From: a virus
Taxonomy: Duplodnaviria > Caudoviricetes
IMG/VR virus record: IMGVR_UViG_3300005259_000074
Span: 32,001-96,000 of that record
DNA length: 64,000 bases
Direction: 5' to 3' (one strand)
How positions within the stretch are numbered: the stretch's first letter is position 1; each line of letters begins with the position of its first letter. The notes under the pieces are model-generated. The model was not told the origin of the DNA, did no database searches, and worked only from the letters and a program-made list of their open reading frames with translations. Positions 2,646-61,143 of the stretch are shown piece after piece. The position numbers and the translations under genes were made by a program.

Positions 2646-3764
2646 GTGAGGTCAGAGATGGCAAGAACAATCGAGTACGAGCAACTACCTTATTACGGTG
2701 TAATCACGATGATGAACACTTGCAACATCAGAGTCCGCGTGACTGAGACTGTTGAAGGCGCTATTAGGCCGATAGTCAGAGTCATAGAAGTGCGCGGAGC
2801 AGGGGCGGTGACATCAGATTTCTCGACGTCGCTGGTGTCTAAAGCTGCCCGAGAGCTGGCTTCTGTGAAGATAGCCTCTTGGAGAGACTCTAATGGACAG
2901 GAAGTGTCTACTATTGGGCCCGATCGCAAGTGTCTCGACGCTCCTGAAGACCTCCGCCAAGAGGTGTTGGACTTCATCGGCGAGAAGATGTTGGACCTCT
3001 ATGCTGAGCTGAAGATCGATTACGACTTCTCGCCGATAACTGCGGTATGTAAAGCTGTGACAGCTTCTGAGAAGTCGTTCGAAGCTGTGTCAAAAGACAC
3101 TCCCACTGCAGAGAGGCTCGCTTTCTCCCCGTTCTTCACCAAGAAGGACCACACAAAGCGTCCGAAGCGAGACTCGTGGTTCACCCCTAGCATTACCAGC
3201 GTTAACGACGGAGAAGCATGCTTGATCAGCACGACTACACCATTAGACAGAAAAGTCATCACAATCATCACTCCTGTAAAAGACAGGTTTTACTGCGAGA
3301 TGGCTTACAGCAAGGTGGTGAAGAACGTGTTCAAGAGGGGGAAGTCGATCCCTTTCACGCGCTGGATGCCAGTCGAGTGTAAGACGCTGAAATGCATAGA
3401 CGATATCATCGACAACGTCGTGAATGCCCACAAGACAATGTACGATATAGACGATGCGGTGATCGCGAGGAAGATGTCTGTCAAAGAGCAGTCTGCTCAG
3501 CTGTTGAAAGATATCGGGATGACTGGGATCGTGTCAAATGACGAGAGAGTAGAAATTAAGGTGTACTTTTCCGCCGAGGAAGATCTGAAAGATAACCGAC
3601 AGCACATGAGAAGCTGGGTCAGGATCAGCCAGAACAAATCCGGCTATTCCCTGGACTCTGCGAGCTTGCCGCCGCTGACTATCGATGATCTGAAGCGAGT
3701 GCTGAGTGTACTTGACGAGAGGGTTACAGACCACGCCGCGGACGTGAAATTAGAAGGTGTGTGA
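2646..3764 (+). CDS. hypothetical protein with C-terminal tag (VKLEGV)
   Basis: 372 aa ORF that overlaps the next gene. Confidence 0.75.
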   Translation: MRSEMARTIEYEQLPYYGVITMMNTCNIRVRVTETVEGAIRPIVRVIEVRGAGAVTSDFSTSLVSKAARELASVKIASWRDSNGQEVSTIGPDRKCLDAPEDLRQEVLDFIGEKMLDLYAELKIDYDFSPITAVCKAVTASEKSFEAVSKDTPTAERLAFSPFFTKKDHTKRPKRDSWFTPSITSVNDGEACLISTTTPLDRKVITIITPVKDRFYCEMAYSKVVKNVFKRGKSIPFTRWMPVECKTLKCIDDIIDNVVNAHKTMYDIDDAVIARKMSVKEQSAQLLKDIGMTGIVSNDERVEIKVYFSAEEDLKDNRQHMRSWVRISQNKSGYSLDSASLPPLTIDDLKRVLSVLDERVTDHAADVKLEGV

Positions 3765-4327
3765 TGCAGAAACTCAAGATAAACGAGAAGCGGCTCTGCC
3801 GATTGACATCTAAGATGGCTGCGAGTATCGTCCCGCACATGGAAAGAGTGGAGTACGCGTGGTCGCCGATAGACGATAACGGTCTCATCACACTGAGAGC
3901 CCGCGTCTATGCGAAGGCGTACGACCACGCGTCGTCACACGAAGTGTACTACATTGAACCCGATGACCCTCCACTCGAGAGGAAGAAACAGCACAGGCCT
4001 CTCCTGTGGAGGTACCGCCAGAACGAGGAAGTGTTGAAAAAGGTGCAGACTGACATCGTCGTCCACTTAGATCCATGGCTGTGGCGGACGGAGATCGTCT
4101 TCGACAAGTTAACTAAGCGTCTTGAGACCGCTGTCGTTCCGGCGGCCTTTTCGAAAGAGTCTAACCCTGACTGGGAGTGTTATGTACACGCTTTCTACGA
4201 TAGAGGCAGGAACACCTGCGTGTACAAGGGAAAGAACAACACGGATGTGTACACCTTCTGCTACACTTTCAGGTACATGAAATGGGTGCACGAAGACGAG
4301 ATAATTCGGGCAATGGAAGACCTGTGA
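3761..4327 (+). CDS. hypothetical protein with C-terminal tag (AMEDL)
   Basis: 188 aa ORF with a 4-nt overlap to the upstream gene. Confidence 0.75.
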   Translation: MMQKLKINEKRLCRLTSKMAASIVPHMERVEYAWSPIDDNGLITLRARVYAKAYDHASSHEVYYIEPDDPPLERKKQHRPLLWRYRQNEEVLKKVQTDIVVHLDPWLWRTEIVFDKLTKRLETAVVPAAFSKESNPDWECYVHAFYDRGRNTCVYKGKNNTDVYTFCYTFRYMKWVHEDEIIRAMEDL

Positions 4328-4335
4328 GTCCGGAC

Positions 4336-4905
4336 TTATTTCCCGTACCTAACTCTCAGCTGATCTACTGACGGTATCCCTTGATAGGATTCACCCTGCG
4401 GCCCTATTAAAACACTTCCACTCCTAGTCAATGGCACTCCCTGGTAACTACCGTCGCTGTTGGGAATGAAGAACAGCGATGATGGAACGCCTGCATTCGG
4501 CTGCGCTACGGGAGCTTGCGGCTGCGCTTGGACTACGCTGACTTGCTGAGGCTGCTGTACAATTTGTGGAGATTGCACTACGATCGTCTGCTGCACTGGA
4601 GGAGCGACCACAACGTACCCGACTCCGTACGGCTGGTAGTACACACCACCAGCGGTGAAGTACGGTGAACCGTTGACGTACACGACTCTCCTCTCCGGAG
4701 GGATATATGAGACCATTGCACCGGTGACTAGAGCTCCTGCGCTGAGGCCGAAGTTAGTCCAGAAGTAAGCGCCCCGACCGTAACCGTAGTACCCGTGACC
4801 ACCGTGCCAACCAGGTCCGGGACCAAATCCTGGAGGATGGGCGAGTGTTGTAGTTGAAGCTAACAGTAAGACGACTACGACAGTGATGCACATCAAGGCT
4901 TTCAT
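4336..4905 (-). CDS. secreted Gly/Tyr/Pro-rich protein, DUF6515-like
   Basis: N-terminal signal peptide, GWHGGHGYYGYG, VVYVNGSPYFTAGGVYYQP..YVVVAPP; TTCAAT-N17-TATAAT with extended TG upstream at about 4944-4972. Confidence 0.7.
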   Translation of the reverse strand: MKALMCITVVVVLLLASTTTLAHPPGFGPGPGWHGGHGYYGYGRGAYFWTNFGLSAGALVTGAMVSYIPPERRVVYVNGSPYFTAGGVYYQPYGVGYVVVAPPVQQTIVVQSPQIVQQPQQVSVVQAQPQAPVAQPNAGVPSSLFFIPNSDGSYQGVPLTRSGSVLIGPQGESYQGIPSVDQLRVRYGK

Positions 4906-5045
4906 TTCATTCTCCGTTTAAATTTATGTTACTTCTTTCTATATATTATACCACACAAAATAGTGTCATTGAAATGAAATTGAAACATCCCGTTGATTAC
5001 CAACTATTTACATAGAAAATGTGAAAATTATGATGGATTTCACTG

Positions 5046-5124
5046 TACAAGTGTACGTTGTGGTTGTATATTGATTACCATTAAGGGAACCACAACGGCT
5101 CCCGACAAACGGAGAGTAGAGATG
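5046..5124 (+). promoter_or_regulatory. repeated promoter-leader cassette, copy 1
   Basis: TGTACA-N17-TATATT-GATTACCATTAAGGGAAC..CGGCTCCC..AAACGGAGA..ATG; similar to the copies at 50419 and 62040. Confidence 0.8.
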
Positions 5125-5397: not shown

Positions 5398-5913
5398 ATG
5401 CACTACAACGAGATAAAGAAACTCACTTCAAGAGGACGCTATTGCTGCGACTTGAACCTCGGAGAGCTGATCCCGAAGTTCGACAGTTACATTGCAGAAT
5501 ACGAACTCCAGATATGCCCTGACTTCCAAAGAGGCCACGTGTGGACTCAGGAGCAGCAGATCAAGTACTGTGAGTTCATGCTCAGGGGAGGGTGCACCAA
5601 CAACGAGTTCCTCCTCAATCACCCCGGGTGGATGCACACCTTCAGAGGAGATTTCGTGCTTGTCGACGGCCTTCAGAGATTGACTGCGATCCGCGAGATG
5701 CTCGAGGACAAAGTTCCAGTCTTCGGTGTGGCATTCAGTTCTATCGAAGACAACCGAAAGTTCAAAAGCGAGGTGAATTTCAAGGTCAATGTGAACAACC
5801 TCAAGACTCGTAAAGAAGTCTTGAATTGGTATCTCGAGCTCAACAGCAACGGAACACCTCACACTGCAGAAGAAATCACGAGGGTCAAAGAACTCCTCGG
5901 AAAGGAGAACTGA
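5398..5913 (+). CDS. DUF262 (GmrSD N-terminal/ParB-like) domain protein
   Basis: ICPDFQRGHVW...LVDGLQRLTAI motifs. Confidence 0.8.
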   Translation: MHYNEIKKLTSRGRYCCDLNLGELIPKFDSYIAEYELQICPDFQRGHVWTQEQQIKYCEFMLRGGCTNNEFLLNHPGWMHTFRGDFVLVDGLQRLTAIREMLEDKVPVFGVAFSSIEDNRKFKSEVNFKVNVNNLKTRKEVLNWYLELNSNGTPHTAEEITRVKELLGKEN

Positions 5914-6916: not shown

Positions 6917-8503
6917 ATGAAGAAAGTAATAGTGCTCTTTGTGGTGTTCGCTTTCCCGGCTTTTGTTGCGTTCTACGCGACGAACGGAGATGCTTCTATG
7001 CAGCTGCAGCAGCTCTTCTGCGGTTTCTTGGCGATGTCTCTGCTAGCGTTCGGCATATCAATGTTGGTAGAAAAGAAACTTCTCTGTGTTCTACTCGCCG
7101 CGGTTTCTTGTGGAGCACAGCTCGTTGGGTGGCTCGATGCGATGTGCTTTTACATGCTCCACAAATCTTTCGACTTCGTCTTCATGTTTCACCTAGATGC
7201 GAACACGTTCAAGTTCATGACAAGCACGCAGATTGCTGGGATGATTGTCATCGCACTGTCTCTTGTTGGGTGTGCTTGGATGTTTTACGCGATATACTTA
7301 GCCGCTGGAGAAGAGGGGAAGACCACTTCGAAGTATCTGAAGTGGATGATGATAGCTTTGGGAATGTTCGGCGTAGTGATATTCGAGACTCCGTGTAAAG
7401 ATCTCGTCCACTATTTCCAACGAGCTCACGCTAGGAGTGGTATGTCTCAGCTCACAGATGAACAGATGTTGGAGCTCGGTATCAAGACGTGTCAAGTCGA
7501 CTACGAGACTCTGAAGACTGTGAAGGGCAAGAACCTCGTGTTCGTATACCTCGAGAGTTTTGAGGCTGCATTCCTTGACGAGAAGCTCTTTCCAGGACTC
7601 TGCCCCAACATAAACGCTCTCCGCAAAGAAGCGGTGGTCTTCGATAACATCACACCTTCTTTCCATGGGACGTATTCTTTCGGCGGTATTTACGCTTCAA
7701 TGGCCGGGAGCCAGATAGTGACTGCGCAGATGCCGAGTGTCTTCGAGTGCAACACTGGCGTGAAGTCGAGCTACGGTGGAAAGCTGCTGACGGTTCCAGC
7801 GATACTCTCTAAAGCTGGATATTACCAAGTGTTCGTCCACGGAGGAGATCCAGCGTTCTCCGGACTCGGAAACTTCTTGAAACACGAGCACTGTGACGAG
7901 TATATTCGCCCGCAGACTGGTCGAGGCATGGGGTGCAGAGATGACGAGATGTTCGAAGCAGCATATGTTAAGTACGCTAAATTAGCAGCCTCTGGACGTC
8001 CTTTCAGCATCACAATGTTCACGCTAGACACTCACATCGGCAACGTAATAGAACCGAACTGGGAGGAATACAATACGAAGGACGTTCCTGAGTTCGCTGG
8101 ACGGCCTGACTCAGTGCTGTCGACATGCAAGCACACGGACGCAGCTTTTGGACAGTTCATCGCCAAACTGAAGGCATCTCCGGCGTGGTCGAACACCGTT
8201 GTCTTCGTGATGAACGACCACTTCTGCTGGCCCGGAGATCACAGCAGAGTGTTGGAGAAGTCAGGGCATAGGGTCATGAATATGTTCGCGATAAACGCAG
8301 GAACTCCGCGGATCGTCAAGACGAGAGGGAAGACGTTTGACGTTGCTCCGACTGTGCTAGAGTTGGTTGGTGTCTCCCACGATTATGTGTTCCCCGTCGG
8401 AGAGTCCCTGCTCGGAACCCCCAACCCGAAGCGCCTAGAAGACGACACGATCATCAGAGAAGAGTGCCTCAACGCCTACTTGTTGAAGAAGAGTGAGAAG
8501 TAA
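6917..8503 (+). CDS. membrane sulfatase-fold phosphotransferase (OpgB/MdoB or LTA-synthase-like)
   Basis: Several N-terminal TM helices followed by NLVFVYLESFE..FPGLCPNI, TLDTH and NDH metal-ligand motifs. Confidence 0.8.
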   Translation: MKKVIVLFVVFAFPAFVAFYATNGDASMQLQQLFCGFLAMSLLAFGISMLVEKKLLCVLLAAVSCGAQLVGWLDAMCFYMLHKSFDFVFMFHLDANTFKFMTSTQIAGMIVIALSLVGCAWMFYAIYLAAGEEGKTTSKYLKWMMIALGMFGVVIFETPCKDLVHYFQRAHARSGMSQLTDEQMLELGIKTCQVDYETLKTVKGKNLVFVYLESFEAAFLDEKLFPGLCPNINALRKEAVVFDNITPSFHGTYSFGGIYASMAGSQIVTAQMPSVFECNTGVKSSYGGKLLTVPAILSKAGYYQVFVHGGDPAFSGLGNFLKHEHCDEYIRPQTGRGMGCRDDEMFEAAYVKYAKLAASGRPFSITMFTLDTHIGNVIEPNWEEYNTKDVPEFAGRPDSVLSTCKHTDAAFGQFIAKLKASPAWSNTVVFVMNDHFCWPGDHSRVLEKSGHRVMNMFAINAGTPRIVKTRGKTFDVAPTVLELVGVSHDYVFPVGESLLGTPNPKRLEDDTIIREECLNAYLLKKSEK

Positions 8504-8524: not shown

Positions 8525-9559
8525 ATGGTTACAAAGAGTGAACTAGCGAAGTCCAACAGGACGAGTGGCTGTCGAGCGTGGTCGAGTGATCCGAAAGAAC
8601 GGAAAGGACTGTGCCATGCTTACACGAAGTGCTACTGCAAGTGGTTCAAACCTCTAGACAGAAGAGTTGAAGACTACAGGACAGCGGCATGCCGCTTTCA
8701 CAACGGCGGTTACTGCACGTGCTGGGCTGCCCTCCGAGAAGCTCGAGAAGAATTCATGAAGCAGAGAGTCGCACAAGCGCTGGAAGAACTATGAAGACGA
8801 TACACAGTCACTGCTACATGATAATGACACCCAGAGGCCATCAGCACACGTGCTTGTCAAAGGTCGTGTCTTTCTGCAAGTGGTCTGTCGAGGCGACTGA
8901 CGGGAGATGCGAGCACGCATTCTTCCATTCCGACGACAGGACAACAGAGTGCATGCGCTCGGAAGCCAGAGAAGAGACCAGCGAGTACGAGGCGGCGTTG
9001 AGGATGGAAGAGATATGAAGACAATAAACCACTGCATTACGATGGAGGCGCATTTCATCAAGAAGTTCGCAGACGAACGCCAACCCGGCGACCACATGTG
9101 CGTGTCCATCGCGCAAGATTACTGCAGATTCTTCCAACCGGGACACGAGAGGTGGACTAACGGTGGGATGTCTTTCATGTGCGCGCACTGTAAGACCGAT
9201 GAACACAAGAATTACAACTGCACGTGCAAAGAAGCGATCGCCGACGCAGATGAAGCGCTCTTAGCGGAGAAGTTAGAGGAACTATGAAGGAAAATTGCTG
9301 CATCACCATAACTAACAGCATCACGCTCTTCAGAAAGAATCTCACTCCGGGAACTCACTACTGCGCGTCTAACATCTCGGAGTTCTGCAAATTTTACAAA
9401 AAGACAGTAGAGACGCTGCGTAGTTCATGCGGTGAGATTAAGACTTTCAAGTGCGCTTGGAATATGTCTCGCGATAGTGCTAGTAGTGTCTGCACTTGCA
9501 AGGAAGCGATAGATGAAGCCGACGAGGACGCCATCGCAGAGAAACTGGAAGATTTGTAG
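8525..9559 (+). repeat. Cys-rich mini-protein array B (8525..8794, 8791..9018, 9015..9287, 9284..9559)
   Basis: Cys skeleton; tails ALEEL, RMEEI, KLEEL, KLEDL; ATGA overlaps. The last two members are visibly close paralogs (CTCKEAI.(D/E)ADE...AEKLE.L). Confidence 0.85.
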
Positions 9560-10347: not shown

Positions 10348-10619
10348 AGGTAGAAGACGGCAGTTTGGTGTTCAGATTCCGCGGGATGATGTACGAGTTC
10401 CCCATCGGAATAAGCGCAGTCTTCCTGATCATGAGCGTGATAGGTGTCGTGATGGTAGTCCAAGAGCCTCTGATCGAAGACAGCGGCCCTGAGATACGGA
10501 TGATGGGTGCAATATTCTTAATAGTGTGCCTATCATACTTGAAGCGCATGCGCAAGTTCGCCAAGGAGCGCGATGTGTCAGACGAAGAAATACTAATACG
10601 AAAGTTGGAGGAGTTGTGA
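10344..10619 (+). CDS. 2-TM membrane protein with tag KLEEL
   Basis: Two hydrophobic segments; ATGA overlap. Confidence 0.7.
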   Translation: MKVEDGSLVFRFRGMMYEFPIGISAVFLIMSVIGVVMVVQEPLIEDSGPEIRMMGAIFLIVCLSYLKRMRKFAKERDVSDEEILIRKLEEL

Positions 10620-10909
10620 TCATCTTGCTCGAAGACTCGGACATGAAATCTTCCAACGCGAGGGCTGCTGCGGAAGACATCGGCGTCAAACACAAAGGTT
10701 ACCACCAGAGGTTCGGCACTAGCGATTACGACATCGGAGGTGTGCACAAAGTTTTCATGGCGAGGTACATCATCCACGTCCCACACCAGGGAGAAGCAAA
10801 AGTCATCAAGTCTCGCGATAGCCAGATAGGGATCAACGGGATCATACCGGAAGACATCGCCGAGAAGTTCAAGAAGATGATAGCGTTAGATGCTATGGAG
10901 AGACTATGA
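10616..10909 (+). CDS. hypothetical protein with tag AMERL
   Basis: GTG start at the GTGA overlap. Confidence 0.65.
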   Translation: MIILLEDSDMKSSNARAAAEDIGVKHKGYHQRFGTSDYDIGGVHKVFMARYIIHVPHQGEAKVIKSRDSQIGINGIIPEDIAEKFKKMIALDAMERL

Positions 10910-11229
10910 ACGCGCTGAATCAGTTCATCGAGGTGATAGCTGAGGCATACGCTTCTTACATCTACACGAGGAAGGCAAAGAAGATACCGCTTAGGCTCAG
11001 CGTGCTGATGGTCCTCATAGCGTTCTTCAACTACGTCTTCAACGAACTCCTCTTAGGTTGGAACTTACACAACGTGCTCTTCTCCGGAAAGCACGATGCA
11101 GGGACTCTACTGGGTCTCGCTGTCTCAGCATGCACAGTGGGGTTCATCTTCCTTGTGTCTTACAGGATACAGGTGAAATTCAACCAGATGAAAGACGATG
11201 ACATAGCGACAGCTATAGAGGACATATGA
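10906..11229 (+). CDS. 2-TM membrane protein with tag AIEDI
   Basis: Hydrophobic segments; ATGA overlaps. Confidence 0.7.
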   Translation: MNALNQFIEVIAEAYASYIYTRKAKKIPLRLSVLMVLIAFFNYVFNELLLGWNLHNVLFSGKHDAGTLLGLAVSACTVGFIFLVSYRIQVKFNQMKDDDIATAIEDI

Positions 11230-11555
11230 GAGAATCCGCAGAGGTCTTAGCAAAAGACGTAGCTGACTACGTGACCACCGACAAGTGGGCCAACGAAAAT
11301 CACGAGATGAGGAGTATGACACTCGTGTGGTACTTATCGCTGTTCTTGTTATTCCCATTCATGTTCGGAAACAGCTGTGGAAGAGTTGTCGAAGATATGT
11401 GCAATTGCGACATGATGCGCGCGCCTTTCTCGTGCGTCTTAGTCGTGTCGACAGGCTTTCTGACGTTCTACTCCTTCGCTTCGCTGAAGATCGCGAAATA
11501 CATCGTCAGAGAGCATGAGTACTCCGAGATAGACAAGAAGTTGGAGGAACTGTGA
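11226..11555 (+). CDS. 2-TM membrane protein with tag KLEEL
   Basis: Hydrophobic segments; overlaps on both sides. Confidence 0.7.
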   Translation: MRESAEVLAKDVADYVTTDKWANENHEMRSMTLVWYLSLFLLFPFMFGNSCGRVVEDMCNCDMMRAPFSCVLVVSTGFLTFYSFASLKIAKYIVREHEYSEIDKKLEEL

Positions 11556-11860
11556 GACTCGAGAAATACGACGTGTTCAAGTGCTCTCACGATTGCGCGA
11601 TAACGCTGGTCGAAGACGACAGATTTTCCGTGTCGTTCACTAGAGGGTTATACGTCGTCCTGATTGCAATACACGGACCACCGCCGCACAACCTTGTTGA
11701 ACTCTACGGAGTGTCTGGCTTAGACCCACTCATAATCCGTAACATCTCCAAGAGAGTCTCCGTTGAGACCCTCAAGAGGAGCATGGACTTCGGGTACATG
11801 TCTTACGACGAGAAAGATTCTCTGGAACTCAAAACCAACCACAAGTTGGAGGATCTGTGA
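11552..11860 (+). CDS. hypothetical protein with tag KLEDL
   Basis: GTGA overlaps on both sides. Confidence 0.7.
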   Translation: MRLEKYDVFKCSHDCAITLVEDDRFSVSFTRGLYVVLIAIHGPPPHNLVELYGVSGLDPLIIRNISKRVSVETLKRSMDFGYMSYDEKDSLELKTNHKLEDL

Positions 11861-12580
11861 AGGAGAACCTCTGTAAATTCTACGGCGTAAAGATCTACGC
11901 TTGCAATTGTTTCGACCCCGGGCACCAGCACCTCCCTCCGGTGTCGGACTGCAAGTACTTTGAGCAAGATGGAGTCTCAGAGAGACGGTGCATGCACTCC
12001 CATGGAACTTGGACGTGCCACTGTGGAGAAGCTCATCTCGACGCCAAAGCGACTTACACTATGGAGAACTTATGAGTGTGAGAGTCCTCGCAGATATGCC
12101 CAGCAGGCTCTGCATCGTCGGAGACGGACCGGTGTTCGTGTGTCAGGCTGACGTGTTCTCTGATGGGCATTGGAACTGCGCCAAGTACTCTAGTAAGAGC
12201 GGTCAGTATACGTGGTGCGAACATGCTGTACACACGGAGGGTGGGCTCTGCGTGTGCAGACACCCGGAATTGCTGGTAGATCTCGCACTAGAAGGACTGT
12301 GAGGATTTCAGTGGACAAAGTCAACTTGTGCAAGCTGATAAGGATTAGGTACTACTGCTTCTCCTCGAGGATCGAGAGCTCTAGGAAGAGAACTTACAGA
12401 CGGAGAGACTGTGTGTACTTTAAGCGGGGAAGAAAACGAGGATCGAAACAGTTGGACTGCACTTACTGCTTAAAACCTGGCGCTTATTGCACCAACCCAC
12501 AGGCGAAATCAGACGCACTCTCGGCCAAGAATGCAGCTGAACTAGAATCGAAACTGGAAGACAAACTAGAACTGATATAG
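11857..12580 (+). repeat. Cys-rich mini-protein array C1 (11857..12075, 12072..12302, 12299..12580)
   Basis: MKENLC../CKYF/C.H..C.C skeleton; tails TMENL, ALEGL, KLELI. Confidence 0.8.
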
Positions 12581-12591: not shown

Positions 12592-13482
12592 ATGTGGAGT
12601 GAAGTGCGAGACATCAAAGGAGAGAACCCCAACGTCACAAAATTCGTCTTCCTGAAGAAGGACGCGGTTGCAGAAGCAGTGCTCTACAAGTACGGAGACT
12701 GCAGAGACAGGACAGTCATCTGCTGTTCCACTCAGTCGGGTTGTCCCGTGGGCTGCGCGTTCTGTGGGACCGGTAAGAAGTTCGTCCGCAACTTGACTGC
12801 GAGGGAGATCACCAGCCAGATCGAGACAGTGCTCCAGTCAAAGCATGTAGATTGCTCGGTCGACGACATCTTCCGCTTCCAGATCATGTTCATGAGCATG
12901 GGAGAGCCCTTCTTGAACATGAAGAACGTGATAACCGCGATCAGAGACATGAACGAGGAGTACGTAGACGTCGAACTCCTGGTCTCCACGATGGGAGCTA
13001 AGTCCGCTACTTTCGAGCAGGACTTGAAGTCTTTCACAGAGCAGTCGCGTCTCATATCGGGAGTGGGCTTGCAATTCTCCATCCACAAGATGATAGACAG
13101 CGACCGGGACCGCCTCATCCCGTTCAAGAACAAGCTCACGCTGAGGGAGATGCGGGACGTCGGCATATTCTGGCACAAACAGACGAAGAGGCCGGTATTC
13201 CTCAATTTCTGCGTCGACGAGGAGTGGTCAGCCTACGAGAGGGCACGTCTGCTAGACATGTTTTCACCCGTGGTGTTCAACTTGACGTTCTCCGTAGTCT
13301 GCAACACGGAGAAAGGCGGCCTCTCTTCTAGGGGCATCGAAACAGCGAAGAAGATGAACGACGAGTTCACCGCTATCGGGTACAACTCGAGGACGTTCGA
13401 CCCAGGTGGACAGGACGATATCGGAGCCGGCTGCGGCCAACTGTGGTTCGTGCAGGATTGGATGAAGAACAGAGGAGAGTGA
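12592..13482 (+). CDS. rlmN: RlmN-like radical SAM RNA methyltransferase
   Basis: CSTQSGCPVGCAFC (CxxxCxxC), FMSMGEP, and C-terminal DIGAGCGQL carrying the catalytic Cys. Confidence 0.8.
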   Translation: MWSEVRDIKGENPNVTKFVFLKKDAVAEAVLYKYGDCRDRTVICCSTQSGCPVGCAFCGTGKKFVRNLTAREITSQIETVLQSKHVDCSVDDIFRFQIMFMSMGEPFLNMKNVITAIRDMNEEYVDVELLVSTMGAKSATFEQDLKSFTEQSRLISGVGLQFSIHKMIDSDRDRLIPFKNKLTLREMRDVGIFWHKQTKRPVFLNFCVDEEWSAYERARLLDMFSPVVFNLTFSVVCNTEKGGLSSRGIETAKKMNDEFTAIGYNSRTFDPGGQDDIGAGCGQLWFVQDWMKNRGE

Positions 13483-31237: not shown

Positions 31238-31258
31238 ATGTCATTTCTTTCTTTATGT

Positions 31259-31345
31259 TAAAATAACACGCGAATGATGTTTGTAAAGGGAACTAGAGGA
31301 TTTTTCTTCAGTTTCCTTTACATCTTCATTTCAGATTGTATTATA
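31259..31345. promoter_or_regulatory. divergent early promoters
   Basis: Minus strand TTCCCTTTACA-N16-TATTTT; plus strand TTCCTTTACA (TTTACA at 31317) -N16-TATTAT. Confidence 0.6.
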
Positions 31346-31612: not shown

Positions 31613-31620
31613 AGCTCACC

Positions 31621-51498: not shown

Positions 51499-51876
51499 GT
51501 GAGAGACAAGAGTTCGATGGAGTTCTTCTTTAAAGGCGCGCGCGTAGTGTGCACGTTGACAGACTCTATCATGTCATTCTCAATGGAGGACCAGACTAGA
51601 CACACTATCACGAACAACTTAGAAGAGATATACCGCACGTCTATTCCCCATCTACCGATCACCAACATAAAGGAATTCCTCGTCGGCATGCTTAACAAGA
51701 AGAGGGCAATCATCTACAGAGATTCTGATGGCACTTGGAACGTAGTCTTCCACGGTGGCGAAGAGTGGAAATCTCTGGTTGACAAGCTAGTGCCGGAGTG
51801 GGTTGCGACGGATCTGCCGACAGAAGATGTTGCTATGAGAGAGGCGATGTGTCGCATAAAACTAGAAGGACTGTGA
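51499..51876 (+). CDS. hypothetical protein with tag KLEGL
   Basis: 125 aa ORF. Confidence 0.6.
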   Translation: MRDKSSMEFFFKGARVVCTLTDSIMSFSMEDQTRHTITNNLEEIYRTSIPHLPITNIKEFLVGMLNKKRAIIYRDSDGTWNVVFHGGEEWKSLVDKLVPEWVATDLPTEDVAMREAMCRIKLEGL

Positions 51877-52969: not shown

Positions 52970-55388
52970 ATGAAATCCCCATACAATACGTATGTTCATC
53001 CATATGGGACTTTCATAACCTGTAAAGTACCTCCGGATGAACAGTGCACACACGCATGTAAGTACTTTGGATGTAGAAATGAATATCTTCCAGTAACTTT
53101 GAAATATGCTGGACAATGCCGGCACTTCTCGTGGTCGAACAGCGAGTGCATGAATCCAGATGTCAGGAAAGAAGTGAAATTGGTAGAGGAGATGGAACTA
53201 ATTTGAATATCAAAGATGAAACGTACTACGGCTTCACATACAATCCCCGGTGGAAAGCTGATTGCAAGAACGGTATCCACCTCTGGGACGAGGTGCTGTC
53301 TGCGGACGGACACTATCTAGTGTGTGATGAGTGCCAGTTGATGATACGCATCGAGAGCAAAGCGGTAGACCGCTCGTACGAAGAGCCAGAGTACTCGCTC
53401 AACAAGAAACTGGAGGAGATATGAATGCCCCACGTTCGTGCTGCAAGAGGATAAACGGACGCTTCTTGTGCTACCGCTACGCCGTCCCGGAAGCAGTGTG
53501 CGCGTATTTCTTGCACAAACCGGGTGTTCATGATGACCCTAAGTTAGTGCCATCTAGATGCGAATTCGCGTTAGATCCAGCTATTACAGGCACTTCTACC
53601 AAAGGACTGATCACGATAGAAATCTTCGGAGAGTGCTTCAACGACGAGGCGAAGCTGTTAGCTGAGCTGGAGGAGATATGAACGGCTGCGAGATTATAGT
53701 CTGTGACACTGGAGATGCTTGGGCAAACTGCAGGACATCGACGGAGAGCAATCTGATAGAGACTATGTGTGAGTTCTTTAAAGATACTTCAAACACGTAT
53801 CCACAGTGTGTCTACAACAAAAAGTTCCCGCAGTGTACTTGTATCACGGCGATAGAGAAAGCTTGTGCACAGCAGGGGATAGACACCTCGGTCATATGGA
53901 ACTCCATAGCAGAAGAAAAATTGGACGACATATGACATGACAACACCGTCGACAAGAAACAACCAGTGCGTAGTAACGAAGCAGACGGGTGGAACATTCT
54001 ACAAGTGCGTCGACAACAGATTTCCCTTTCAATCTGCGTGTTCGTTCTTTGTGCTGTATCTTTCTCTGTACAAATGCAAGTACTATGAGTCACAATGCGG
54101 CAATTGCACCAACAAAAAAGCGATGAGAGACGCACTCGCAATGAAGAGATTGGACGACTTATGAGCCAGAAGAAGAACTTCTGCGTCTGGAAAGACACTA
54201 CCGACGTGATCGGCCTCAGCTACTCTTATGCTAGGTGTGAGGCGTCTTTAAATATGTGGAGACATCAGACGGAATGCGCATTTTTCGTCCCAAAACTCAA
54301 ATGGTCAGACTCTTGTCTATTCTTCGCGTTCGACGAACTTCCAACGTGTTTGTGTAGCGCTGCTATCAGTGAATCACAACTCATGAAGAAGATAGAAGAC
54401 ATATGAAGAAAAACATGGGTGTGATAGTTGAGAGCAAAGCTACGAACACAGAGGAACTACTGTGCATTGCGATATCTGACTTCTTTGAAACGGAGTGCAA
54501 GTTCTATTCACAGTCTGAAGGTGAATTCCGAATATGTAAGCACGCTTTAGATTCTCACTTCTGTGCATGTGCAGAAGCTAAAATGGACGCACTGACAGAT
54601 AAGAGGATGAACCAGAAATGAGTGTGGACTATATGAGATCCTACAGGTTAGACATGGAGAATAACCGAAAACGTAAGAAGACGTTGGAACCGATGCAGAA
54701 CTTCTGCAAGGTGTACGAAGAGCTCAACACCGTCACTAGAAAAGTCGACACTGCGCAGAAGACTTGCGCCGCGCCGTCTAACCAAGCGTACCGCTGCACG
54801 TTCTTCAAGTTCAAGTGTCATGACACATGCGAGTACATGGAGTGGTCTGATGAGTTAGACTGCACTAACAAAGAAGCGTACAGAGATGCGATGACGAACG
54901 AGAAGTTAGAGCAGATATGACTGGCTGCAAACTCATCAACAATAGCACCGTGAATTCGGACGGCTTTCCAGTGTGCGGCATAGATATGAACTCGCAGAGC
55001 CTGTCGACATGCGATCACTACACGAGGTACATGGGTTACAACGGTCGACACACGTGTTCCAATTATGATCGGAAGTACAGAGAGTGTCTCAACGAAGAAG
55101 CGATAAAGGAAGCGAAATTAGACAGACGATTGGAGAACTTGTGAAACGACTGGAGAACGTCACTATCGCGGGCACCCGTTCACTAGTCTTTCCGCGGTAT
55201 ATGATATGTCTTCACAGGATAAAGTACTCGTGTGGCAGTACGAGTGTCGTGACAATATGATAGAGGAGAACGTTAAGTCTATGATTGACAACCGCCGTTC
55301 GTGCAAATACGTGAGGCTGCTGTCCAATAACGACGTATTCTGTATTCACGAAGAAGCAACACTACAAAGAAGACTGGAAGAACTATGA
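52970..55388 (+). repeat. Cys-rich mini-protein array I (52970..53206, 53421..53681, 53678..53935, 53937..54164, 54161..54406, 54403..54621, 54618..54920, 54917..55144, 55206..55388; tagged non-family 53203..53424)
   Basis: Skeleton and overlaps; tag in all but 54403..54621 (ends KRMNQK). Confidence 0.85.
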
Positions 55389-56458
55389 ACACTGAGATTA
55401 TGAGGCTCTGGCACCGCGCAGTTAAAGATGGGAAGATTAAGGAGAATGAAAACTTCAAGATCTTGTTCTCACCGGAATACAACTTCGCTTTCGACAAGCG
55501 CACAGGCATGTTCGCTCGCTGGGGGAAGACTCTCGAAGAAGACCCTCAGTGGAGTCCCTACGGTCCGGAGATTGCTGACATAGAGATATCTGCAGGTGAG
55601 TGCTCGTCTCGGTGCGCGTTCTGCTACAAGGGGAACGGCGACCATTCCGGCAGAGCCAACAACATGTCTCTCGACACGTTCAAGAAGCTGTTCAGCAAGC
55701 TCCCGAAGACCGTCACACAGATCGCCTTCGGCATATGCGACGTCACCACTAACGAGGACTTCTTTTCCATCATGGAGTACTCGAAGTCGAACGGCGTCAT
55801 CCCGAACTACACATGCAACGGGCACTTCGTGACTGACGGAGTCGCCATGGCCACAGCAGCTCTCTGCGGCGCAGTGGCTGTGTCAGTCGTCGACAAGCAG
55901 CTCAGCTACGACGCCATCAAGAAGTTCACAGATGCTGGGATGAAGCAAGTGAACATACACGCCCTACTCAGCGAAGAGACCTACGACAAGTGCATGGGCA
56001 TCGTAGACGACATGGCGACTGACCCTCGCTTAGCTAAAATGAGGGCTATAGTGTTCCTCCAGTACAAGCACAAGAATCCGAAGTCTCCGTTCCACTCGAT
56101 GATAGACAAGGTGAAGTACCAGAAGTTGGTCGCGCACTGCCAGCGGAGGGGGATTAACTTCGGCTTCGACTCATGCTCCGCAAACCTCTTCGTCGAGAGC
56201 ATGGAGGGACATCCTCAGCTAGACCAGTTTAAGTCCGTCTCAGAGCCATGTGAGAGTGGAGTATTCAGTTCCTATATCAATTGGGAGGGAAAGTTCTTCC
56301 CGTGCAGCTTCTGCGAGAACGTGAAAGACTGGAAAGAAGGACTGGATGCAGTCAACTGCGAGGACTTCTTAAAAGACGTGTGGATGCATCCTCGTGTGCA
56401 GGAGTTCCGCGCTAGACTACTGGATAACAAACGCAATTGCTTGATGTACAACATATAA
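55385..56458 (+). CDS. radical SAM protein with SPASM/Twitch-like C-terminus
   Basis: ECSSRCAFCY (CxxxCxxC); PCESG..YINWEGKFFPCSFC. Confidence 0.88.
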   Translation: MNTEIMRLWHRAVKDGKIKENENFKILFSPEYNFAFDKRTGMFARWGKTLEEDPQWSPYGPEIADIEISAGECSSRCAFCYKGNGDHSGRANNMSLDTFKKLFSKLPKTVTQIAFGICDVTTNEDFFSIMEYSKSNGVIPNYTCNGHFVTDGVAMATAALCGAVAVSVVDKQLSYDAIKKFTDAGMKQVNIHALLSEETYDKCMGIVDDMATDPRLAKMRAIVFLQYKHKNPKSPFHSMIDKVKYQKLVAHCQRRGINFGFDSCSANLFVESMEGHPQLDQFKSVSEPCESGVFSSYINWEGKFFPCSFCENVKDWKEGLDAVNCEDFLKDVWMHPRVQEFRARLLDNKRNCLMYNI

Positions 56459-56721: not shown

Positions 56722-57191
56722 CGATGAAGACGTACTTCAGTGACGAACTACTCCCAACTGACTTCGACGGAAGTGTATTCCTCGCTGGACCGACTCCGCG
56801 AGACCGCGCTCTCAAGTCATGGAGGCCAATGGCAGTAGAGATGTTGACCTTCGGCGGCACCTTCAAGAAGTGTTTCATTCCAGAGAGAAAAGATTGGAAA
56901 GTTGGATTCGACTACATAGACCAAGTGGAATGGGAGCTCGAAGCGCTCGAGAAGTGCTCCGTCATATTGTTCTGGGTTCCACGAGACATTAAGACTATGC
57001 CAGCATTCACGACGAACGTTGAGTTCGGGATGTTCGTGCGAGACTCGAGGAGCGTGTACGGCCGCCCTCCCAATGCAGAGAACTGTAGATACCTCGACTA
57101 CGTGTACAAAAAGTTCAGAGGGCTCCGCCCGGCAGTTAACTTGCAGATACTCGTGTCTAGCGCTGAGAACACTATGGTGAACTCGTGTTGA
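56718..57191 (+). CDS. nucleoside 2-deoxyribosyltransferase-like protein
   Basis: VFLAGPTPR..SWR, QVEWE..L..C.VILFW, TTNVEFG. Confidence 0.8.
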   Translation: MTMKTYFSDELLPTDFDGSVFLAGPTPRDRALKSWRPMAVEMLTFGGTFKKCFIPERKDWKVGFDYIDQVEWELEALEKCSVILFWVPRDIKTMPAFTTNVEFGMFVRDSRSVYGRPPNAENCRYLDYVYKKFRGLRPAVNLQILVSSAENTMVNSC

Positions 57192-57625
57192 CGTCAATAA
57201 GGCTGGCTGAGGTATTGATCAACCCTCCGTATAAATTCGAGCGCCATAATTTGTACTCCGTGTGCTCTATAGAAGACACCTCAGTCAATCTGATATGGAT
57301 GTGGAAACCAGAAGACGTCGCGACGGTGCAGCGTGCGTGGTTAGAAGATGTGATATCGCTCTATGATAGCGGCGTATTCGCCGAGGAGAGACGGCAGATT
57401 TTCAGATCTTGGTTCGAAGACTCAAAGTGTAGAGTCGGTTGCATATACAGCATCTCGAATGCACTTTCTTCTAGGTACGAGAATGACCTCAAAGAGCTAG
57501 GCTCAAGGTTGTCTTGCATAGACATCGCTGGATATGAGTGGAGAGAGTACTTTTACGCTGCTGACGAGAGAGGAAGAAAATTCTTGCAAGAAGCAGAGAT
57601 CATGGCAAAACTAGAACTGTTGTGA
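57185..57625 (+). CDS. hypothetical protein with tag KLELL
   Basis: 146 aa ORF. Confidence 0.65.
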   Translation: MLTSIRLAEVLINPPYKFERHNLYSVCSIEDTSVNLIWMWKPEDVATVQRAWLEDVISLYDSGVFAEERRQIFRSWFEDSKCRVGCIYSISNALSSRYENDLKELGSRLSCIDIAGYEWREYFYAADERGRKFLQEAEIMAKLELL

Positions 57626-57658
57626 AGTATATTATCAAGAACTTTGAGAGGACGAAAG

Positions 57659-58111
57659 ATGAAAGTTAGAGTCGGGTTCGTCAGCAACAGCAGCTCTAGC
57701 AGTTTCGTAGTGTCAGGACCCGGAGAGTTGATCCTCGAGAACACTCTCGTCGGCAAAATCTATGTTATCGGAGCTAATGGTAAGAGAGAGTTCGGCTGGG
57801 AGAGAGAACGGACTTTTGATTTTGATTCGAAGGTTAACTGGGCAGCAATGCAGGCGATGTACTCTCCAGACGACTTGCTCGAGATGAAGATGTACATGCT
57901 GGAGAACGTCATCAAAGAGCACATGGGAGCGGCCCACGTGGATATCTCGTTGCAGATCGATGATTACGACAAACCTGGGTACGGCTACATAGACCACCAG
58001 TCGACTTCATCAGAAGACGATAGTTTCTTAGAGATATTTGAGTCGGAACAACAGCTGAAGGAGTTCCTGTTCTGCCCGAAGAACTACATACAAGGTGGAA
58101 ATGACAACTGA
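57659..58111 (+). CDS. GFVSNSSSSSF-leader protein
   Basis: MKVRVGFVSNSSSSSF; ends IQGGNDN. Confidence 0.8.
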   Translation: MKVRVGFVSNSSSSSFVVSGPGELILENTLVGKIYVIGANGKREFGWERERTFDFDSKVNWAAMQAMYSPDDLLEMKMYMLENVIKEHMGAAHVDISLQIDDYDKPGYGYIDHQSTSSEDDSFLEIFESEQQLKEFLFCPKNYIQGGNDN

Positions 58112-58120
58112 GGAGACAGC

Positions 58121-58474
58121 ATGAAGTTCAGAGATGGTTTCGTCAGCAATTCGTCCAGCAGTTCTTTCGTCGTGTTCGGCGTCAAGCTGAGCGCTAGAAA
58201 GTTGGGCGAAGAAGACTACTTCATCAGCAGCATCGCAGAAGACATCGGTTGCTACGACGAAGATGGGATGGCGATACTCCTAGGAAATGATGACATCTAC
58301 TTCGGGAAGATACTCGCAGAGGGAGAAGACGACTTGACTGAGAGCGAGACATCAGCAAGAGAATTAGCTGACCTCGAAGAGAGCATCGTCGACAACCTCA
58401 AGAAAGTGCTGAAGAAAGACAAGCAGAACATGAAAATGACGGTCAAGCTCTACACGGGGCAGAGATCATGCTGA
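58121..58474 (+). CDS. GFVSNSSSSSF-leader protein
   Basis: MKFRDGFVSNSSSSSF. Confidence 0.8.
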   Translation: MKFRDGFVSNSSSSSFVVFGVKLSARKLGEEDYFISSIAEDIGCYDEDGMAILLGNDDIYFGKILAEGEDDLTESETSARELADLEESIVDNLKKVLKKDKQNMKMTVKLYTGQRSC

Positions 58475-58487
58475 CGGGAGATGCAGA

Positions 58488-58859
58488 GTGAAGACTAGAG
58501 ACGGATTCATCAGCAACAGCAGCTCTTCGAGCTTCGTCGTAGTGCTTTCACCGAAGTTCAACATCGATAAGTTCATCGATGAGAACTACGAGAAGAATCC
58601 AGACACTGACGAGGAGCTCGTTTTTGCGGAAGAAGCTCTCTCGAGGTCTGAGTTGGTGGATGTCATCAAACAGATAAGAAGTGGAAAAATCATCTACGAA
58701 AATGACTGCGACTACGGCATCTACGTCAGCCTCCAAGAAAAACTGAAAGATTTCGTGATAGTTGAGAATGAAATTGGACCAGACGAGGGACACATCCTCG
58801 GCTTGAAGATGACCGAACTAGAGAGACAACTCAAAAAGATAAAGGAATACGGAGTATGA
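58488..58859 (+). CDS. GFISNSSSSSF-leader protein
   Basis: MKTRDGFISNSSSSSF. Confidence 0.8.
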   Translation: MKTRDGFISNSSSSSFVVVLSPKFNIDKFIDENYEKNPDTDEELVFAEEALSRSELVDVIKQIRSGKIIYENDCDYGIYVSLQEKLKDFVIVENEIGPDEGHILGLKMTELERQLKKIKEYGV

Positions 58860-59188
58860 AGGTCAGGAATGGTTTCGTGTCGAACAGCAGCTCTTCGAGC
58901 TTCTGCATCTACGGGTTCCGCATCGACGAGCACGACTACGAGCTGCGCGGGCAGATCGAAGAGTGGATATCTAAGAACGTGGGGAACCGCGGGTGGACGA
59001 TTTCCAGTGGTCCCGGTGGAGAGGCCATCTACTGCGGCCGCGACTTCACCACTATCAAAGATGACGAGACAGGCGCTCAGTTCAAGAAGTCGGTCGCGGA
59101 CGCCGTCGAGAAGATGACTGTCGAGCTGGGACTCCCGGAAGATTGCAAGACACTTTCCTCATTCGAAGAAGGCTGGTACGACGGCTGA
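58856..59188 (+). CDS. GFVSNSSSSSF-leader protein
   Basis: MKVRNGFVSNSSSSSF; ends EEGWYDG. Confidence 0.8.
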   Translation: MKVRNGFVSNSSSSSFCIYGFRIDEHDYELRGQIEEWISKNVGNRGWTISSGPGGEAIYCGRDFTTIKDDETGAQFKKSVADAVEKMTVELGLPEDCKTLSSFEEGWYDG

Positions 59189-59235: not shown

Positions 59236-60159
59236 ATGGAAAAGAGAGAACTCTGGGTAGACAAACACGCCCCACCGACTCTCGATGACATGGTCATCGA
59301 CAGCGACATGAGGAAGATGTTCGAAGAGTACGTCAAGCAGAAGACGATCCCCAACATGCTGCTCGCCGGAAGACAGGGAACTGGAAAGAGCACGTTGGCT
59401 CATGCATTAGCCCACGACATCGGTGCGACAGTGCTCTACGTCAATGCTGGATACGAGTCAGGCATTGAAGTCATAAGGACTAAGGTCAAAGACTTCTGCG
59501 ATGCTTTCGCTTTCGGCGGTGCACTCAAAGTCGTGATATTAGATGAGGCGGACGCTCTATCAGGTCAGGGTGGTGGAGGGAACGGCGCCAGCGCTCAGGG
59601 AGGTCTCAGAAACCTCATTGAAGAGGCGTCTGATGACACTCGCTTCATCATGACGTGTAACTACGTGAACAAGATAATTCCCGCACTACAATCACGCTGC
59701 ACGCCTATAAAGGTCAAGTTTACCGTAGAAGACGTGATGCGGAGAGTCGTGAAGATACTGAAAGCCGAGAAGGTGAAGTTCGACGCAGACACCCTAACGG
59801 CATTCACCGCTAGGATCGTCAAGAAGAAGTTCCCAGACGTCAGGTCGATCATCAACTGCTTGGAGCAGTGGAGCATATCCGGAGAGCTGAAAGACGGAAA
59901 AGCTACTGATGACCAAGCTGGCGATGAAGTGGTGAATAAGATACTCGCTTTTGGGACTATGAGAGAAGCTCGCGAGTGGTGGATATCGAACGAAGAGGCG
60001 TTCGCGTCTGACTACGAAGCGCTAGCGTCTAAGGTGTTCGACGCGCTAGAAGACCCGAAGAAGCAGCTCGCTGTGGCCGAGGGGATGTACCGCATGGCGG
60101 TCTGCCTCGACAAGGAGATCCAGTTCGCAGCGATGGTTTACCAACTCAAGGGATCGTGA
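59236..60159 (+). CDS. gp44: sliding-clamp loader AAA+ subunit, T4 gp44/RFC-like
   Basis: LWVDKHAP.TLDDMV, GRQGTGKS, VVILDEAD, FIMTCNY..KIIPALQSRC. Confidence 0.92.
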   Translation: MEKRELWVDKHAPPTLDDMVIDSDMRKMFEEYVKQKTIPNMLLAGRQGTGKSTLAHALAHDIGATVLYVNAGYESGIEVIRTKVKDFCDAFAFGGALKVVILDEADALSGQGGGGNGASAQGGLRNLIEEASDDTRFIMTCNYVNKIIPALQSRCTPIKVKFTVEDVMRRVVKILKAEKVKFDADTLTAFTARIVKKKFPDVRSIINCLEQWSISGELKDGKATDDQAGDEVVNKILAFGTMREAREWWISNEEAFASDYEALASKVFDALEDPKKQLAVAEGMYRMAVCLDKEIQFAAMVYQLKGS

Positions 60160-60160
60160 C

Positions 60161-60649
60161 ATGTCAAACAGCACTGCCGGTGTTCCGCAGTCTACTTCTA
60201 TGTTGACAGCAGAGAACTTGTGCAGCAGCCGCGCATCGATAGATTCCCTACATGTCAATAAATCTTTGAACGCAAACACCGCTCAGATATCATGCGACAA
60301 TGTGGACATTGACATGTCAAATTCAAATTTGAGGATGTCTGGTGGAATTTTAAACATGTTGAATACATCTGTGTTTATTTCTGAGTCAATGAATCTGCAC
60401 TTTGGAAAACTGCATATCAGATCGGTCGATGGACTACCCAATGATGTACTGCCATGCAAGGAGATCTCCGATTGCGAGATATTTAGAGGGTCAACGTTAA
60501 TTGTCTCTTATGACAGCATAGTCCACATGGCGTTCACACCGTTCTGCTACCATTGCACTCACTTTAATCCAGACAGAATAGACTTTAAGAAGAAAATAGC
60601 AGATCACTACAAAGACGCCGAAGCCAACAAGAAGTTAGAATCTATCTGA
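60161..60649 (+). CDS. hypothetical protein with tag KLESI
   Basis: AT-richer N-terminal part; CYHC near the C-terminus. Confidence 0.6.
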   Translation: MSNSTAGVPQSTSMLTAENLCSSRASIDSLHVNKSLNANTAQISCDNVDIDMSNSNLRMSGGILNMLNTSVFISESMNLHFGKLHIRSVDGLPNDVLPCKEISDCEIFRGSTLIVSYDSIVHMAFTPFCYHCTHFNPDRIDFKKKIADHYKDAEANKKLESI

Positions 60650-60661
60650 CATGGGTGTAAG

Positions 60662-60901
60662 ATGGAACACATAGATATAAAAGAACACTGTGAACCGGTG
60701 TATTCATCTAGTCATCCACCGTACTTGCACTGCAAATACCAGAACGAGTTTTCCGAAAGAATGTACCGGTGTCCGATGTTTGAATCATCTTTCGTCGACA
60801 AAAATTTCTGCTACTGGTTCATTGCGAGAGATCGTGGAGAGTGCCGGACCCCATCCGCGCTGAAGGAACTAGAAGTAGATGAGAAGATGGACAGCATATG
60901 A
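60662..60901 (+). CDS. Cys-rich mini-protein (tag KMDSI)
   Basis: HC..HC..RCPMF..FCYW..EC. Confidence 0.75.
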   Translation: MEHIDIKEHCEPVYSSSHPPYLHCKYQNEFSERMYRCPMFESSFVDKNFCYWFIARDRGECRTPSALKELEVDEKMDSI

Positions 60902-61143
60902 GGATGACGTTCAAATATCATAAACACGGAGACCGCCGTACTGTCAAGAAGTTCATATGGTGGCCTATGATACTGATGCTAGACCCACCGAAGAACGGTT
61001 CTCTCGAACGGGGTGATGTGCAGATGCGGTGGTTGGAGTACACTTACGTCACTCAGCTGTACCTCATTAGCGGAAAAGGATCTCACTGGATAGACTTTTG
61101 TTGGGGTGACGCTGCGTTAGAAAGAGCTCTTGATGACCTCTAG
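60898..61143 (+). CDS. conserved phage hypothetical protein with tag ALDDL
   Basis: GDRRTVKKFIWWP...RWLE. Confidence 0.7.
   Translation: MRMTFKYHKHGDRRTVKKFIWWPMILMLDPPKNGSLERGDVQMRWLEYTYVTQLYLISGKGSHWIDFCWGDAALERALDDL

Follow-up and report, generated by a model that had tools for sequence, protein, structure and literature searches.

The tail and the proteins that carry it

We analyzed a 64,000-bp stretch of phage DNA (bases 32001-96000 of the 262,470-bp IMG/VR virus record IMGVR_UViG_3300005259_000074; here called the window), in which a short C-terminal peptide recurs both on the members of a cysteine-rich protein family and on proteins with dissimilar bodies. Coordinates below are those of the window unless they are given as genome coordinates. 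The record comes from an uncultured member of the T4 family, with a 462-amino-acid (aa) capsid protein ∼36% identical to gp23-type major head proteins and with other T4-type genes, encoding a sheath, a gp44-like clamp loader, a gp21-type prohead protease and homologs of gp32 and gp55. A megablast search with the capsid region against cultured phages gave no match, and no close cultured relative was found. Gene calling with a simple codon-usage model yielded 453 genes at 90% coding density; because C-termini are set by stop codons alone, errors in the choice of start codons leave the main counts untouched.

We scored a strict form of the tag, [KRA][LMI][ED]x[ILVM]-COOH, and a loose form, [LMIV][ED]x[ILVM]-COOH. 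The strict tag was present at 111 of 453 C-termini, compared with 0.54 expected from its internal rate (91 of 76,338 positions), and the loose tag at 147 of 453, compared with 3.8 expected, so that about one third of the phage proteins carry it. In the window the share was 102 of 166 genes. The tagged proteins have a median length of only 81 aa, and their genes cluster at genome 32-96 kb, with lesser groups at 176-192 kb and toward the two genome ends. BLAST clustering produced one family of 69 members, which grew to 109 in an iterated hidden Markov model (HMM) search, and 97 of these are tagged. The remaining 50 tagged proteins, 42 to 402 aa long, fall outside the family, and among non-family proteins the excess persists (strict, 35 with 0.41 expected; loose, 50 with 2.85 expected). 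An earlier note, made from the sequence alone, had claimed that the tag ends both the family and proteins without other visible similarity to it. Each position that it named for such a protein did carry the tag, and the signal was stronger than reported. Of the proteins that it listed as lacking the tag, the following do lack it: the capsid protein (17144-18532), the sheath (43644-45794), the helicase (25113-26768), the two radical SAM proteins (12592-13482 and 55385-56458) and the clamp loader (59236-60159).

The motif sits at the very end of the protein. No residue trails the strict motif in 111 cases, compared with about one case for each offset from 1 to 12, so either a free carboxylate is important or all copies originated by 3'-end capture. 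The earlier note had described a tag of five residues; the terminal motif is real, but the conserved stretch is longer, reaching positions -11, -10 and -8. It comprises 11 residues, [DE]-A-x-[LIA]-x-x-K-[LMI]-E-[ED/x]-[ILV], ending at the free C-terminus. Among the non-family bearers, E or D stands at -11 in 35 of 50 and I, L or A at -8 in 40 of 50, often with Ala at -10, although positions -11 and -8 played no part in choosing the tagged set. A family profile over -12 to -6 separates tagged from untagged non-family tails (P=1e-19). Judging from this pattern and from predicted structures, the tail probably forms an amphipathic helix of three turns, in which positions -8, -4 and -1 are hydrophobic and charged residues surround them.

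Peptide motif or Shine-Dalgarno signal

At the DNA level a typical tail reads AAG TTG GAG GAA CTG TGA, or ends in ATA TGA, placing GGAGG ahead of the GTGA or ATGA by which the gene overlaps its successor. One explanation would therefore make the peptide motif a by-product of a Shine-Dalgarno (SD) sequence combined with the overlap used for translational coupling. ATGA or GTGA ends 112 of the 147 loosely tagged genes, and GGAG or GAGG occurs within the last 18 nt in 56 of the 80 tagged genes that overlap. Overlapping genes also overuse GAG at -3, Leu codons ending in G at -4 and ATA at -1: the GAG:GAA ratio at -3 is 50:18 in overlapping tagged genes, compared with 15:21 in free tagged genes and 53:47 in the genome, and Ile at -1 is encoded by ATA in 38 of 38 overlapping tagged genes, with ATC, CTC and GTT used at -1 in free tagged genes. 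Since codon use in the free tagged genes is near the genome average, the nucleotide bias is an overlay, present only where an SD sequence is needed.

For the counts that follow, free genes are those without an ATG, GTG or TTG opening a reading frame of at least 40 codons within -15 to +20 of the stop codon. The loose tag ends 13 of 132 free non-family genes (1.09 expected). It also ends 9 of the 105 that in addition lack GGAG, GAGG and AGGA in their last 21 nt (0.87 expected; P=2.7e-7), and 6 of these 105 SD-less, start-less genes carry the strict tag (0.13 expected). Examples are a 402-aa protein ending AAG ATA GAA GAC CTC TGA, with the next gene 74 nt away, and the gene at 60898-61143, ending GCT CTT GAT GAC CTC TAG. 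The tag likewise stands before the non-overlapping TAG or TAA stops at 9559, 12580, 25107, 31612 and 46050, as the earlier note had said.

The spacing of the SD-like element points the same way. In tagged genes with a 4-bp overlap it lies mostly 4 nt from the start codon (26 of 55), compared with a peak at 7 nt in untagged overlapping genes and a spread of 5 to 9 nt, again with its mode at 7 nt, in the 203 genes with noncoding DNA upstream. The untagged overlapping genes end in varied residues (K13, L7, R6, T5 and others). We thus conclude that the peptide fixes the place of the SD element, not the reverse. Pairing and overlap also leave unexplained the K at -5, the restriction of -4 to L, M or I out of all codons ending in G, and that of -1 to I, L or V out of all codons ending in A or G; the conserved positions -11 and -8 fall beyond any SD element. 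As a control, 25 kb of early and replication genes of T4, rich in 4-bp overlaps, had the loose tag on 0 of 41 genes. The tail is neither held to the usual SD spacing of 5 to 9 nt nor confined to places where a downstream gene needs such an element.

SD pairing plus overlap, which the earlier note had named as the full explanation that would overturn its claim, thus fails as the sole cause; this purely nucleic acid account is largely refuted, and we consider it very improbable. Selection on the tag as a genuine peptide motif is well supported, by the SD-less free bearers, the codons, the spacing, the exact terminus, positions -11 and -8, and the ortholog pairs described below. The synonymous codon variation and the SD-less junctions on which the earlier note had based its argument for selection acting on the peptide as well as on the ribosome-binding site are both present. 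The SD function rides on the tag: the codons that it favors, xTG GAG GAx, include GGAG, and wherever genes overlap by ATGA or GTGA the tag therefore supplies the SD element of the next gene.

Conservation in relatives

A family profile search of 1.8 billion cluster representatives gave 125 matches. Of 127 family proteins examined, 89 were foreign to this genome, and 76 of these 89 were tagged; they are drawn from at least one assembly at JGI and four at ENA. Searching for relatives with the clamp loader yielded only a 30%-identity relative among viral contigs and none among metagenome contigs, and the family alignment offered no segment conserved well enough to seed a search for related loci. 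Three contigs proved useful for comparison. Two of them, L002 and L005, both derive from one JGI sample and show synteny with window regions 53-64 kb and 24-39 kb; the third, L009, is from an ENA assembly. Loose tags end 8 of 25 genes in L002, 39 of 46 in L005 and 11 of 12 in L009.

We compared 44 tagged ortholog pairs between the phage and these contigs (mean identity, 52%). The residue class was kept at -1 in 44 of 44 pairs, at -4 in 43 and at -3 in 41. Nonsynonymous changes numbered 11 to 14 at -5, -4, -3 and -1, compared with 22 to 30 at -2, -6 to -9 and -12; synonymous changes numbered 9 to 12 at -5, -4 and -3, and 5 at -1. The residue class is thus held while codons change; the earlier note had proposed a comparison of synonymous with nonsynonymous conservation. 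For the gene pair at 24290-25107, QKLEEI becomes AKLEDI in L005 and MKMEEM becomes MKLEEV, the two tails of this second pair each standing before TAG. The L009 ortholog of 53203-53424 has KKLEEL in place of KKLEEI, with different codons. In L002, the ortholog of 57185-57625 is 48% identical and has KKLEEL in place of AKLELL, with no overlap there either, and the ortholog of 60161-60649 (44% identity by BLAST) ends KDAEADRKLETI, its tail changed from KKLESI to RKLETI.

The cysteine-rich family and its arrays

Members of the family measure ∼75 aa and share the pattern M-x-x-N-x-C ... C ... C-x-[FY]-[FY] ... C ... C-x-C-x-x-A ... K-[LM]-E-[ED]-[LI], with variable sequence between the conserved cysteines. 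An AlphaFold2 model of one member, built from 116 sequences, is confident (pLDDT 91) and predicts a beta-hairpin, some short elements and, at residues 60-74, a C-terminal helix. A fold search with this model against the PDB and AlphaFold DB clusters gave no match at E<=0.001, and an ESM Atlas look-up of the family sequence returned no score of >=0.9 and no informative named cluster. Two copies of a family member when co-folded scored 0.00 with the fold of the partner uncertain, which counts neither way.

On the plus strand, family genes form an array of four tagged genes at 8525-9559, the last ending EKLEDL-TAG and followed by a promoter, a set of three at 11857-12580, the last ending DKLELI-TAG, and an array of five at 40005-41218. 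A family-like open reading frame (ORF) at 31274-31612 (+) ends ERKLEDI-TAG, and two family genes at 63162-63598 (+) end RAIDEI and NALEKI. On the minus strand are an array of five tagged genes at 488-1587, one of about 16 genes at 27258-31237 with 4-bp overlaps at nearly all junctions, and long tagged arrays at 32053-39588, broken by a 321-aa and a 70-aa non-family bearer. Further minus-strand arrays at 46050-49296 finish with the gene at 46050-46307, which ends YSLDSL-TAA. Within them, at 46997-48129 (-), the tagged genes 46997-47245 and 47890-48129 were missed by the family HMM; their weak scores against a tail-less family profile suggest that they are probably diverged members.

Another family array, at 53421-55144 (+), lies upstream of a radical SAM/SPASM gene, an arrangement syntenic in L002 and L009. 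The product of that gene (55385-56458, +) is a 357-aa radical SAM and SPASM protein of the size of anSME, and a 528-aa sulfatase-family protein is encoded at 6917-8503 (+); from their domains, the two appear to be a sulfatase carried by the phage and the maturase for it. The putative maturase gene directly follows a family array in this phage, L002 and L009, and has a conserved tail of its own (CLMYNI, CLMYDI and CPIYDI). We considered whether the tag might be a recognition tail for such an enzyme, akin to a RiPP follower, and rejected this, as the enzyme is anSME sized, a sulfatase in the window provides it with an ordinary substrate, and bearers of up to 402 aa do not fit. Also in the window, at 5398-5913 (+), is a gene for a 171-aa protein with a GmrSD_N domain, found at the N-terminus of a restriction endonuclease that targets modified DNA.

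The starts of family genes are also conserved in many cases, reading ATG AAG GAG AAC NTN TGC (M-K-E-N-x-C) with an internal AAGGAG in the minus-strand arrays at 27258-39588 and in other arrays, and the whole ∼30-nt stop/start junction is alike across family arrays.

Promoter-like sites of the form TTTACA-N16-18-TAnnnT head tagged arrays, and 25 of their 34 matches in the genome fall in the 10% that is intergenic. Such sites occur at 1955(-), 5007(+), 9568(+), 15319(+), 31260(-), 39610(-), 50419(+) and 62040(+), often with TG before the -10 element. Placed ahead of tagged arrays, these sigma70-like promoters suggest that the tagged operons are early genes transcribed by the host RNA polymerase.

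Bearers outside the family and the possibility of a structural helix

When the bodies of the non-family bearers were scored against a family profile without its last 12 residues, only 4 of the 48 scored reached E<0.1, leaving about 45 bearers with no detectable body relation to the family. The claim of the earlier note that the bodies are dissimilar therefore stands for these ∼45 proteins, but the four others are probably diverged members; none of the four was on its list. Pfam and PHROGs searches with at least 20 tagged proteins gave nothing above cut-off, and the 402-aa and 368-aa tagged proteins had no tblastn match in cultured phages.

The 368-aa protein is encoded at 2658-3764 (+; from 2646 in the earlier note), ends HAADVKLEGV-TGA and has no Pfam or PHROG family above cut-off. 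It is followed at 3764-4327 (+; there from 3761) by a gene for a 187-aa protein that ends EIIRAMEDL-TGA, with no start codon within -15 to +20 of its stop. Five consecutive non-family genes for proteins of 83 to 109 aa, joined by 4-bp overlaps, occupy 10368-11860 (+), with the tails RKLEEL (gene ending at 10619, and opening at 10344 in the earlier note), DAMERL (10616-10909), TAIEDI (10906-11229), KKLEEL (11226-11555) and HKLEDL (11552-11860). A 91-aa protein (13952-14227, +) ends EKLEDV-TAA, and a 181-aa protein (14764-15309, +) ends EKLEDL, encoded by AAA CTC GAA GAT TTG TGA; this last gene has no SD-like sequence, the next gene is 104 nt off, and a sigma70-like promoter lies downstream.

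Two Cys/His-rich paralogs (149 and 123 aa) with no relation to the main family are encoded at 24290-25107 (+) and end QKLEEI-TGA and MKMEEM-TAG; C59, C68, C106, H108 and C123 are invariant in them, and orthologs are present in L005. A low-confidence AlphaFold2 model of a bearer from this locus predicts that its last 11 residues form a separate helix (138-148). Within the minus-strand family arrays lie the genes for the 321-aa protein (32971-33936; end, SSIDNL), whose sole homolog found is its L005 ortholog (54% identical; end, AGIDNL), and for the 70-aa protein (33933-34145; end, QNLEEI). A 74-aa protein, also on the minus strand (49726-49950), ends KRIEDI. Other bearers are on the plus strand: a 98-aa protein with only the loose tag (39712-40008; TIVDKI), a 40-aa ORF whose status as a gene is uncertain (42193-42315; DRLEKL), a 125-aa protein with no downstream start (51499-51876; IKLEGL), a 73-aa protein (53203-53424; KKLEEI), a 146-aa protein with the next gene at 33 nt (57185-57625; AKLELL), and the 81-aa product of 60898-61143, with the end RALDDL-TAG and a convergent gene opposite. 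At 60161-60649 (+), a 162-aa protein whose gene follows that of the clamp loader, where gp62 would be expected, ends KDAEANKKLESI, with the tail KKLESI and a final ATC codon.

A second portable element lies at the other end of some proteins. An N-terminal module of ∼20 to 30 residues is common to otherwise different proteins and was seen at 57644-59188 (+) and at the N-terminus of the 321-aa protein, which bears both this module and the C-terminal tag. PHROG family phrog_7397 matches only the first 19 to 66 residues of the module proteins, and by BLAST the N-terminal 30 residues of that tagged 321-aa protein match one member of the phrog_7397 cluster. The module may be a capsid-targeting-type leader.

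The distribution of the bearers bears on another account, in which the tail is a structural or oligomerization helix: it would be the last helix of the cysteine-rich fold, spread by array recombination and deletion and kept for stability or pairing, with no common reader. In the family model the tail indeed ends the confident helix 60-74, and the hydrophobic residues at -8, -4 and -1 form a single amphipathic face. Most non-family bearers lie within or beside family arrays, the four noted above resemble diverged members, and a fusion capturing a 3' end alone would give a motif at the exact terminus. Such a helix, however, would need to fit many cores, given ∼45 bearers of 42 to 402 aa with dissimilar bodies, several of them remote from the arrays (for example, at genome 204-230 kb). 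The wide differences among tail codons would make the fusions old, yet orthologs still retain the residue class. Nothing, moreover, requires a helix used for packing or as a zipper to end exactly at the carboxylate, so that the concentration of the strict tag at offset 0 is not accounted for. We regard a structural helix as possible but, on balance, doubtful.

Proposed role and candidate readers

The reading that we favor, at roughly even odds (probability of about 0.5), is that the tail is a docking or address peptide that is read by one partner through its free C-terminus and has been reused as an SD element. A single partner, encoded by phage or host, would then grip all ∼150 bearers, which outside the cysteine-rich family mostly share no detectable similarity, by the same C-terminal tail. 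The earlier note had likewise proposed an address label, as a degron, a ligand of a hub protein or a signal for localization, packaging or export. Should one reader exist, finding it would give a function to ∼150 orphan proteins and provide a transferable 11-residue tag. Two phage proteins, recognized by their domains, offer leads only as to such a reader. The first is a ClpP-family peptidase of 212 aa (genome 226066-226704, +; Pfam CLP_protease, 65 bits; phrog_1827, "ATP-dependent protease"), which is encoded among replication and recombination genes and is distinct from the gp21-type prohead protease (genome 116777-117514). A host unfoldase that reads the tail could feed this peptidase and so clear early proteins on schedule. 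The second is a 383-aa MoxR/CobS-type AAA_5 ATPase (genome 161424-162575), which might instead dock or thread the C-termini; the gene behind it encodes a tagged protein of 230 aa with the end SSTIENL and no Pfam match (both genes, genome 161424-163316, +).

Several observations weigh against a common reader. No partner was recognized among the phage genes searched: the genome gave no match to PDZ_2 or TPR_12, only a weak, sub-threshold one to AAA_2, and none to a ClpX-type unfoldase. The tag, acidic and then with one hydrophobic residue, is unlike the C-terminal degrons known for ClpX, which are of the nonpolar LAA type (ssrA) or the basic RRKKAI type (MuA). In the family model the tail continues the confident helix 60-74 and so may belong to the fold. 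By identity, the tails are not clearly more conserved than the bodies, the thing kept being the residue class, and the conservation result rests on 44 pairs from three partial relatives.

A bolder and rather unlikely extension of the docking reading would make the cysteine-scaffold mini-proteins binders of diverse host targets, such as defense proteins. The shared tail would plug them, along with dozens of unrelated early proteins, into one ClpP-containing protease or MoxR-like AAA+ machine as adaptors, amounting to a proteome-wide C-terminal address code. Should one reader exist, finding it would give a function to ∼150 orphan proteins and provide a transferable 11-residue tag.

Two further candidates were set aside. 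Mimicry of the tail of a single-stranded DNA-binding protein (SSB) was rejected, the gp32 homolog ending NDVKNGKF without a tag. The T4 prohead protease cuts at the site L/I-x-E, and the tag does not fit this, because its conserved acid at -3 directly follows a hydrophobic residue instead of standing two residues on.

Comparison with known systems

In T4, the proteins gp43, gp33 and gp55 have interchangeable hydrophobic-acidic C-termini that bind the sliding clamp (PMC2988020). The tail described here is similarly a short C-terminal peptide, both hydrophobic and acidic, on unrelated proteins of a T4-family phage, and a tagged protein occupies the gp62 position, so that the tail might likewise link the proteins that bear it to the sliding clamp of the phage. 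The sequences, however, differ: T4 gp43 ends SLDFLFG and T4 gp55 ends SLDFLYEAND, giving an epitope SLDFL[FY] in place of K[LMI]E[ED][ILV]. The gp55 homolog of this phage is untagged and ends LSADFFNREIFDNDNPDHHKDE, and an 864-aa protein presumed from size and position only to be gp43 ends SDINSL. The T4 epitope marks three proteins, compared with ∼150 here, and so many early proteins competing for the clamp would be hard to explain. No clamp gene was recognized in the phage with PF02916, PF09116 or T4 gp45 as the query. A clamp-binding role for the tag is therefore highly unlikely in our view. We also observed that the gp55 homolog (genome 218161-218712, +) has LSADFF, which resembles SLDFLY, 18 residues before its end, with an acidic extension after it.

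C-terminal signals of AAA+ proteases, such as the LAA of ssrA, the RRKKAI of MuA and the XB peptide of SspB, depend on a free C-terminus and deliver many unrelated proteins to a single machine. The tail resembles them as a terminal peptide on many unrelated proteins, in a phage with its own ClpP-like peptidase, but differs in having no likeness to the known ClpX motifs, and the phage yielded no unfoldase.

Encapsulation peptides of microcompartments and encapsulins, and the N-terminal capsid-targeting sequence of T4, are short terminal signals that direct unrelated cargo to a single shell or scaffold. The tail shares with them a terminal amphipathic helix on unrelated proteins, as predicted by the models (60-74 in the family, and 138-148 at low confidence in the Cys/His-rich bearer). 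Its bearers, however, belong to operons that sigma70-like promoters head and that lie apart from the structural modules, and the separate N-terminal module of this phage is a better candidate for capsid targeting than the tail.

Class III PDZ ligands have the form [DE]-x-hydrophobic-COOH, and TPR-clamp domains bind EEVD-COOH. The last four residues of the tag fit the PDZ pattern at the exact terminus of 147 proteins, but the conserved element is an 11-residue helix and not an extended four-residue strand, and neither PDZ_2 nor TPR_12 was found in the phage.

As in other coupled overlapping genes, the last codons of the upstream gene serve as the SD element of the next gene along the 4-bp-overlap chains. 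The difference is that here the peptide sets the place of the SD element, with its 4-nt spacer, and persists where no such element is needed. The locus is thus a clear example of dual coding, in which a constraint on the peptide decides where the ribosome-binding site of the next gene lies.

In the searchable literature we found no description of such a phage C-terminal tag or of such a cysteine-rich expansion. Portable terminal peptides as such are a known kind of element; this particular tag, the share of the proteome that carries it and its link to a cysteine-rich family of >100 members are not known. Known portable terminal peptides mark a handful of proteins, whereas this tail marks about one third of the genes of a large phage.

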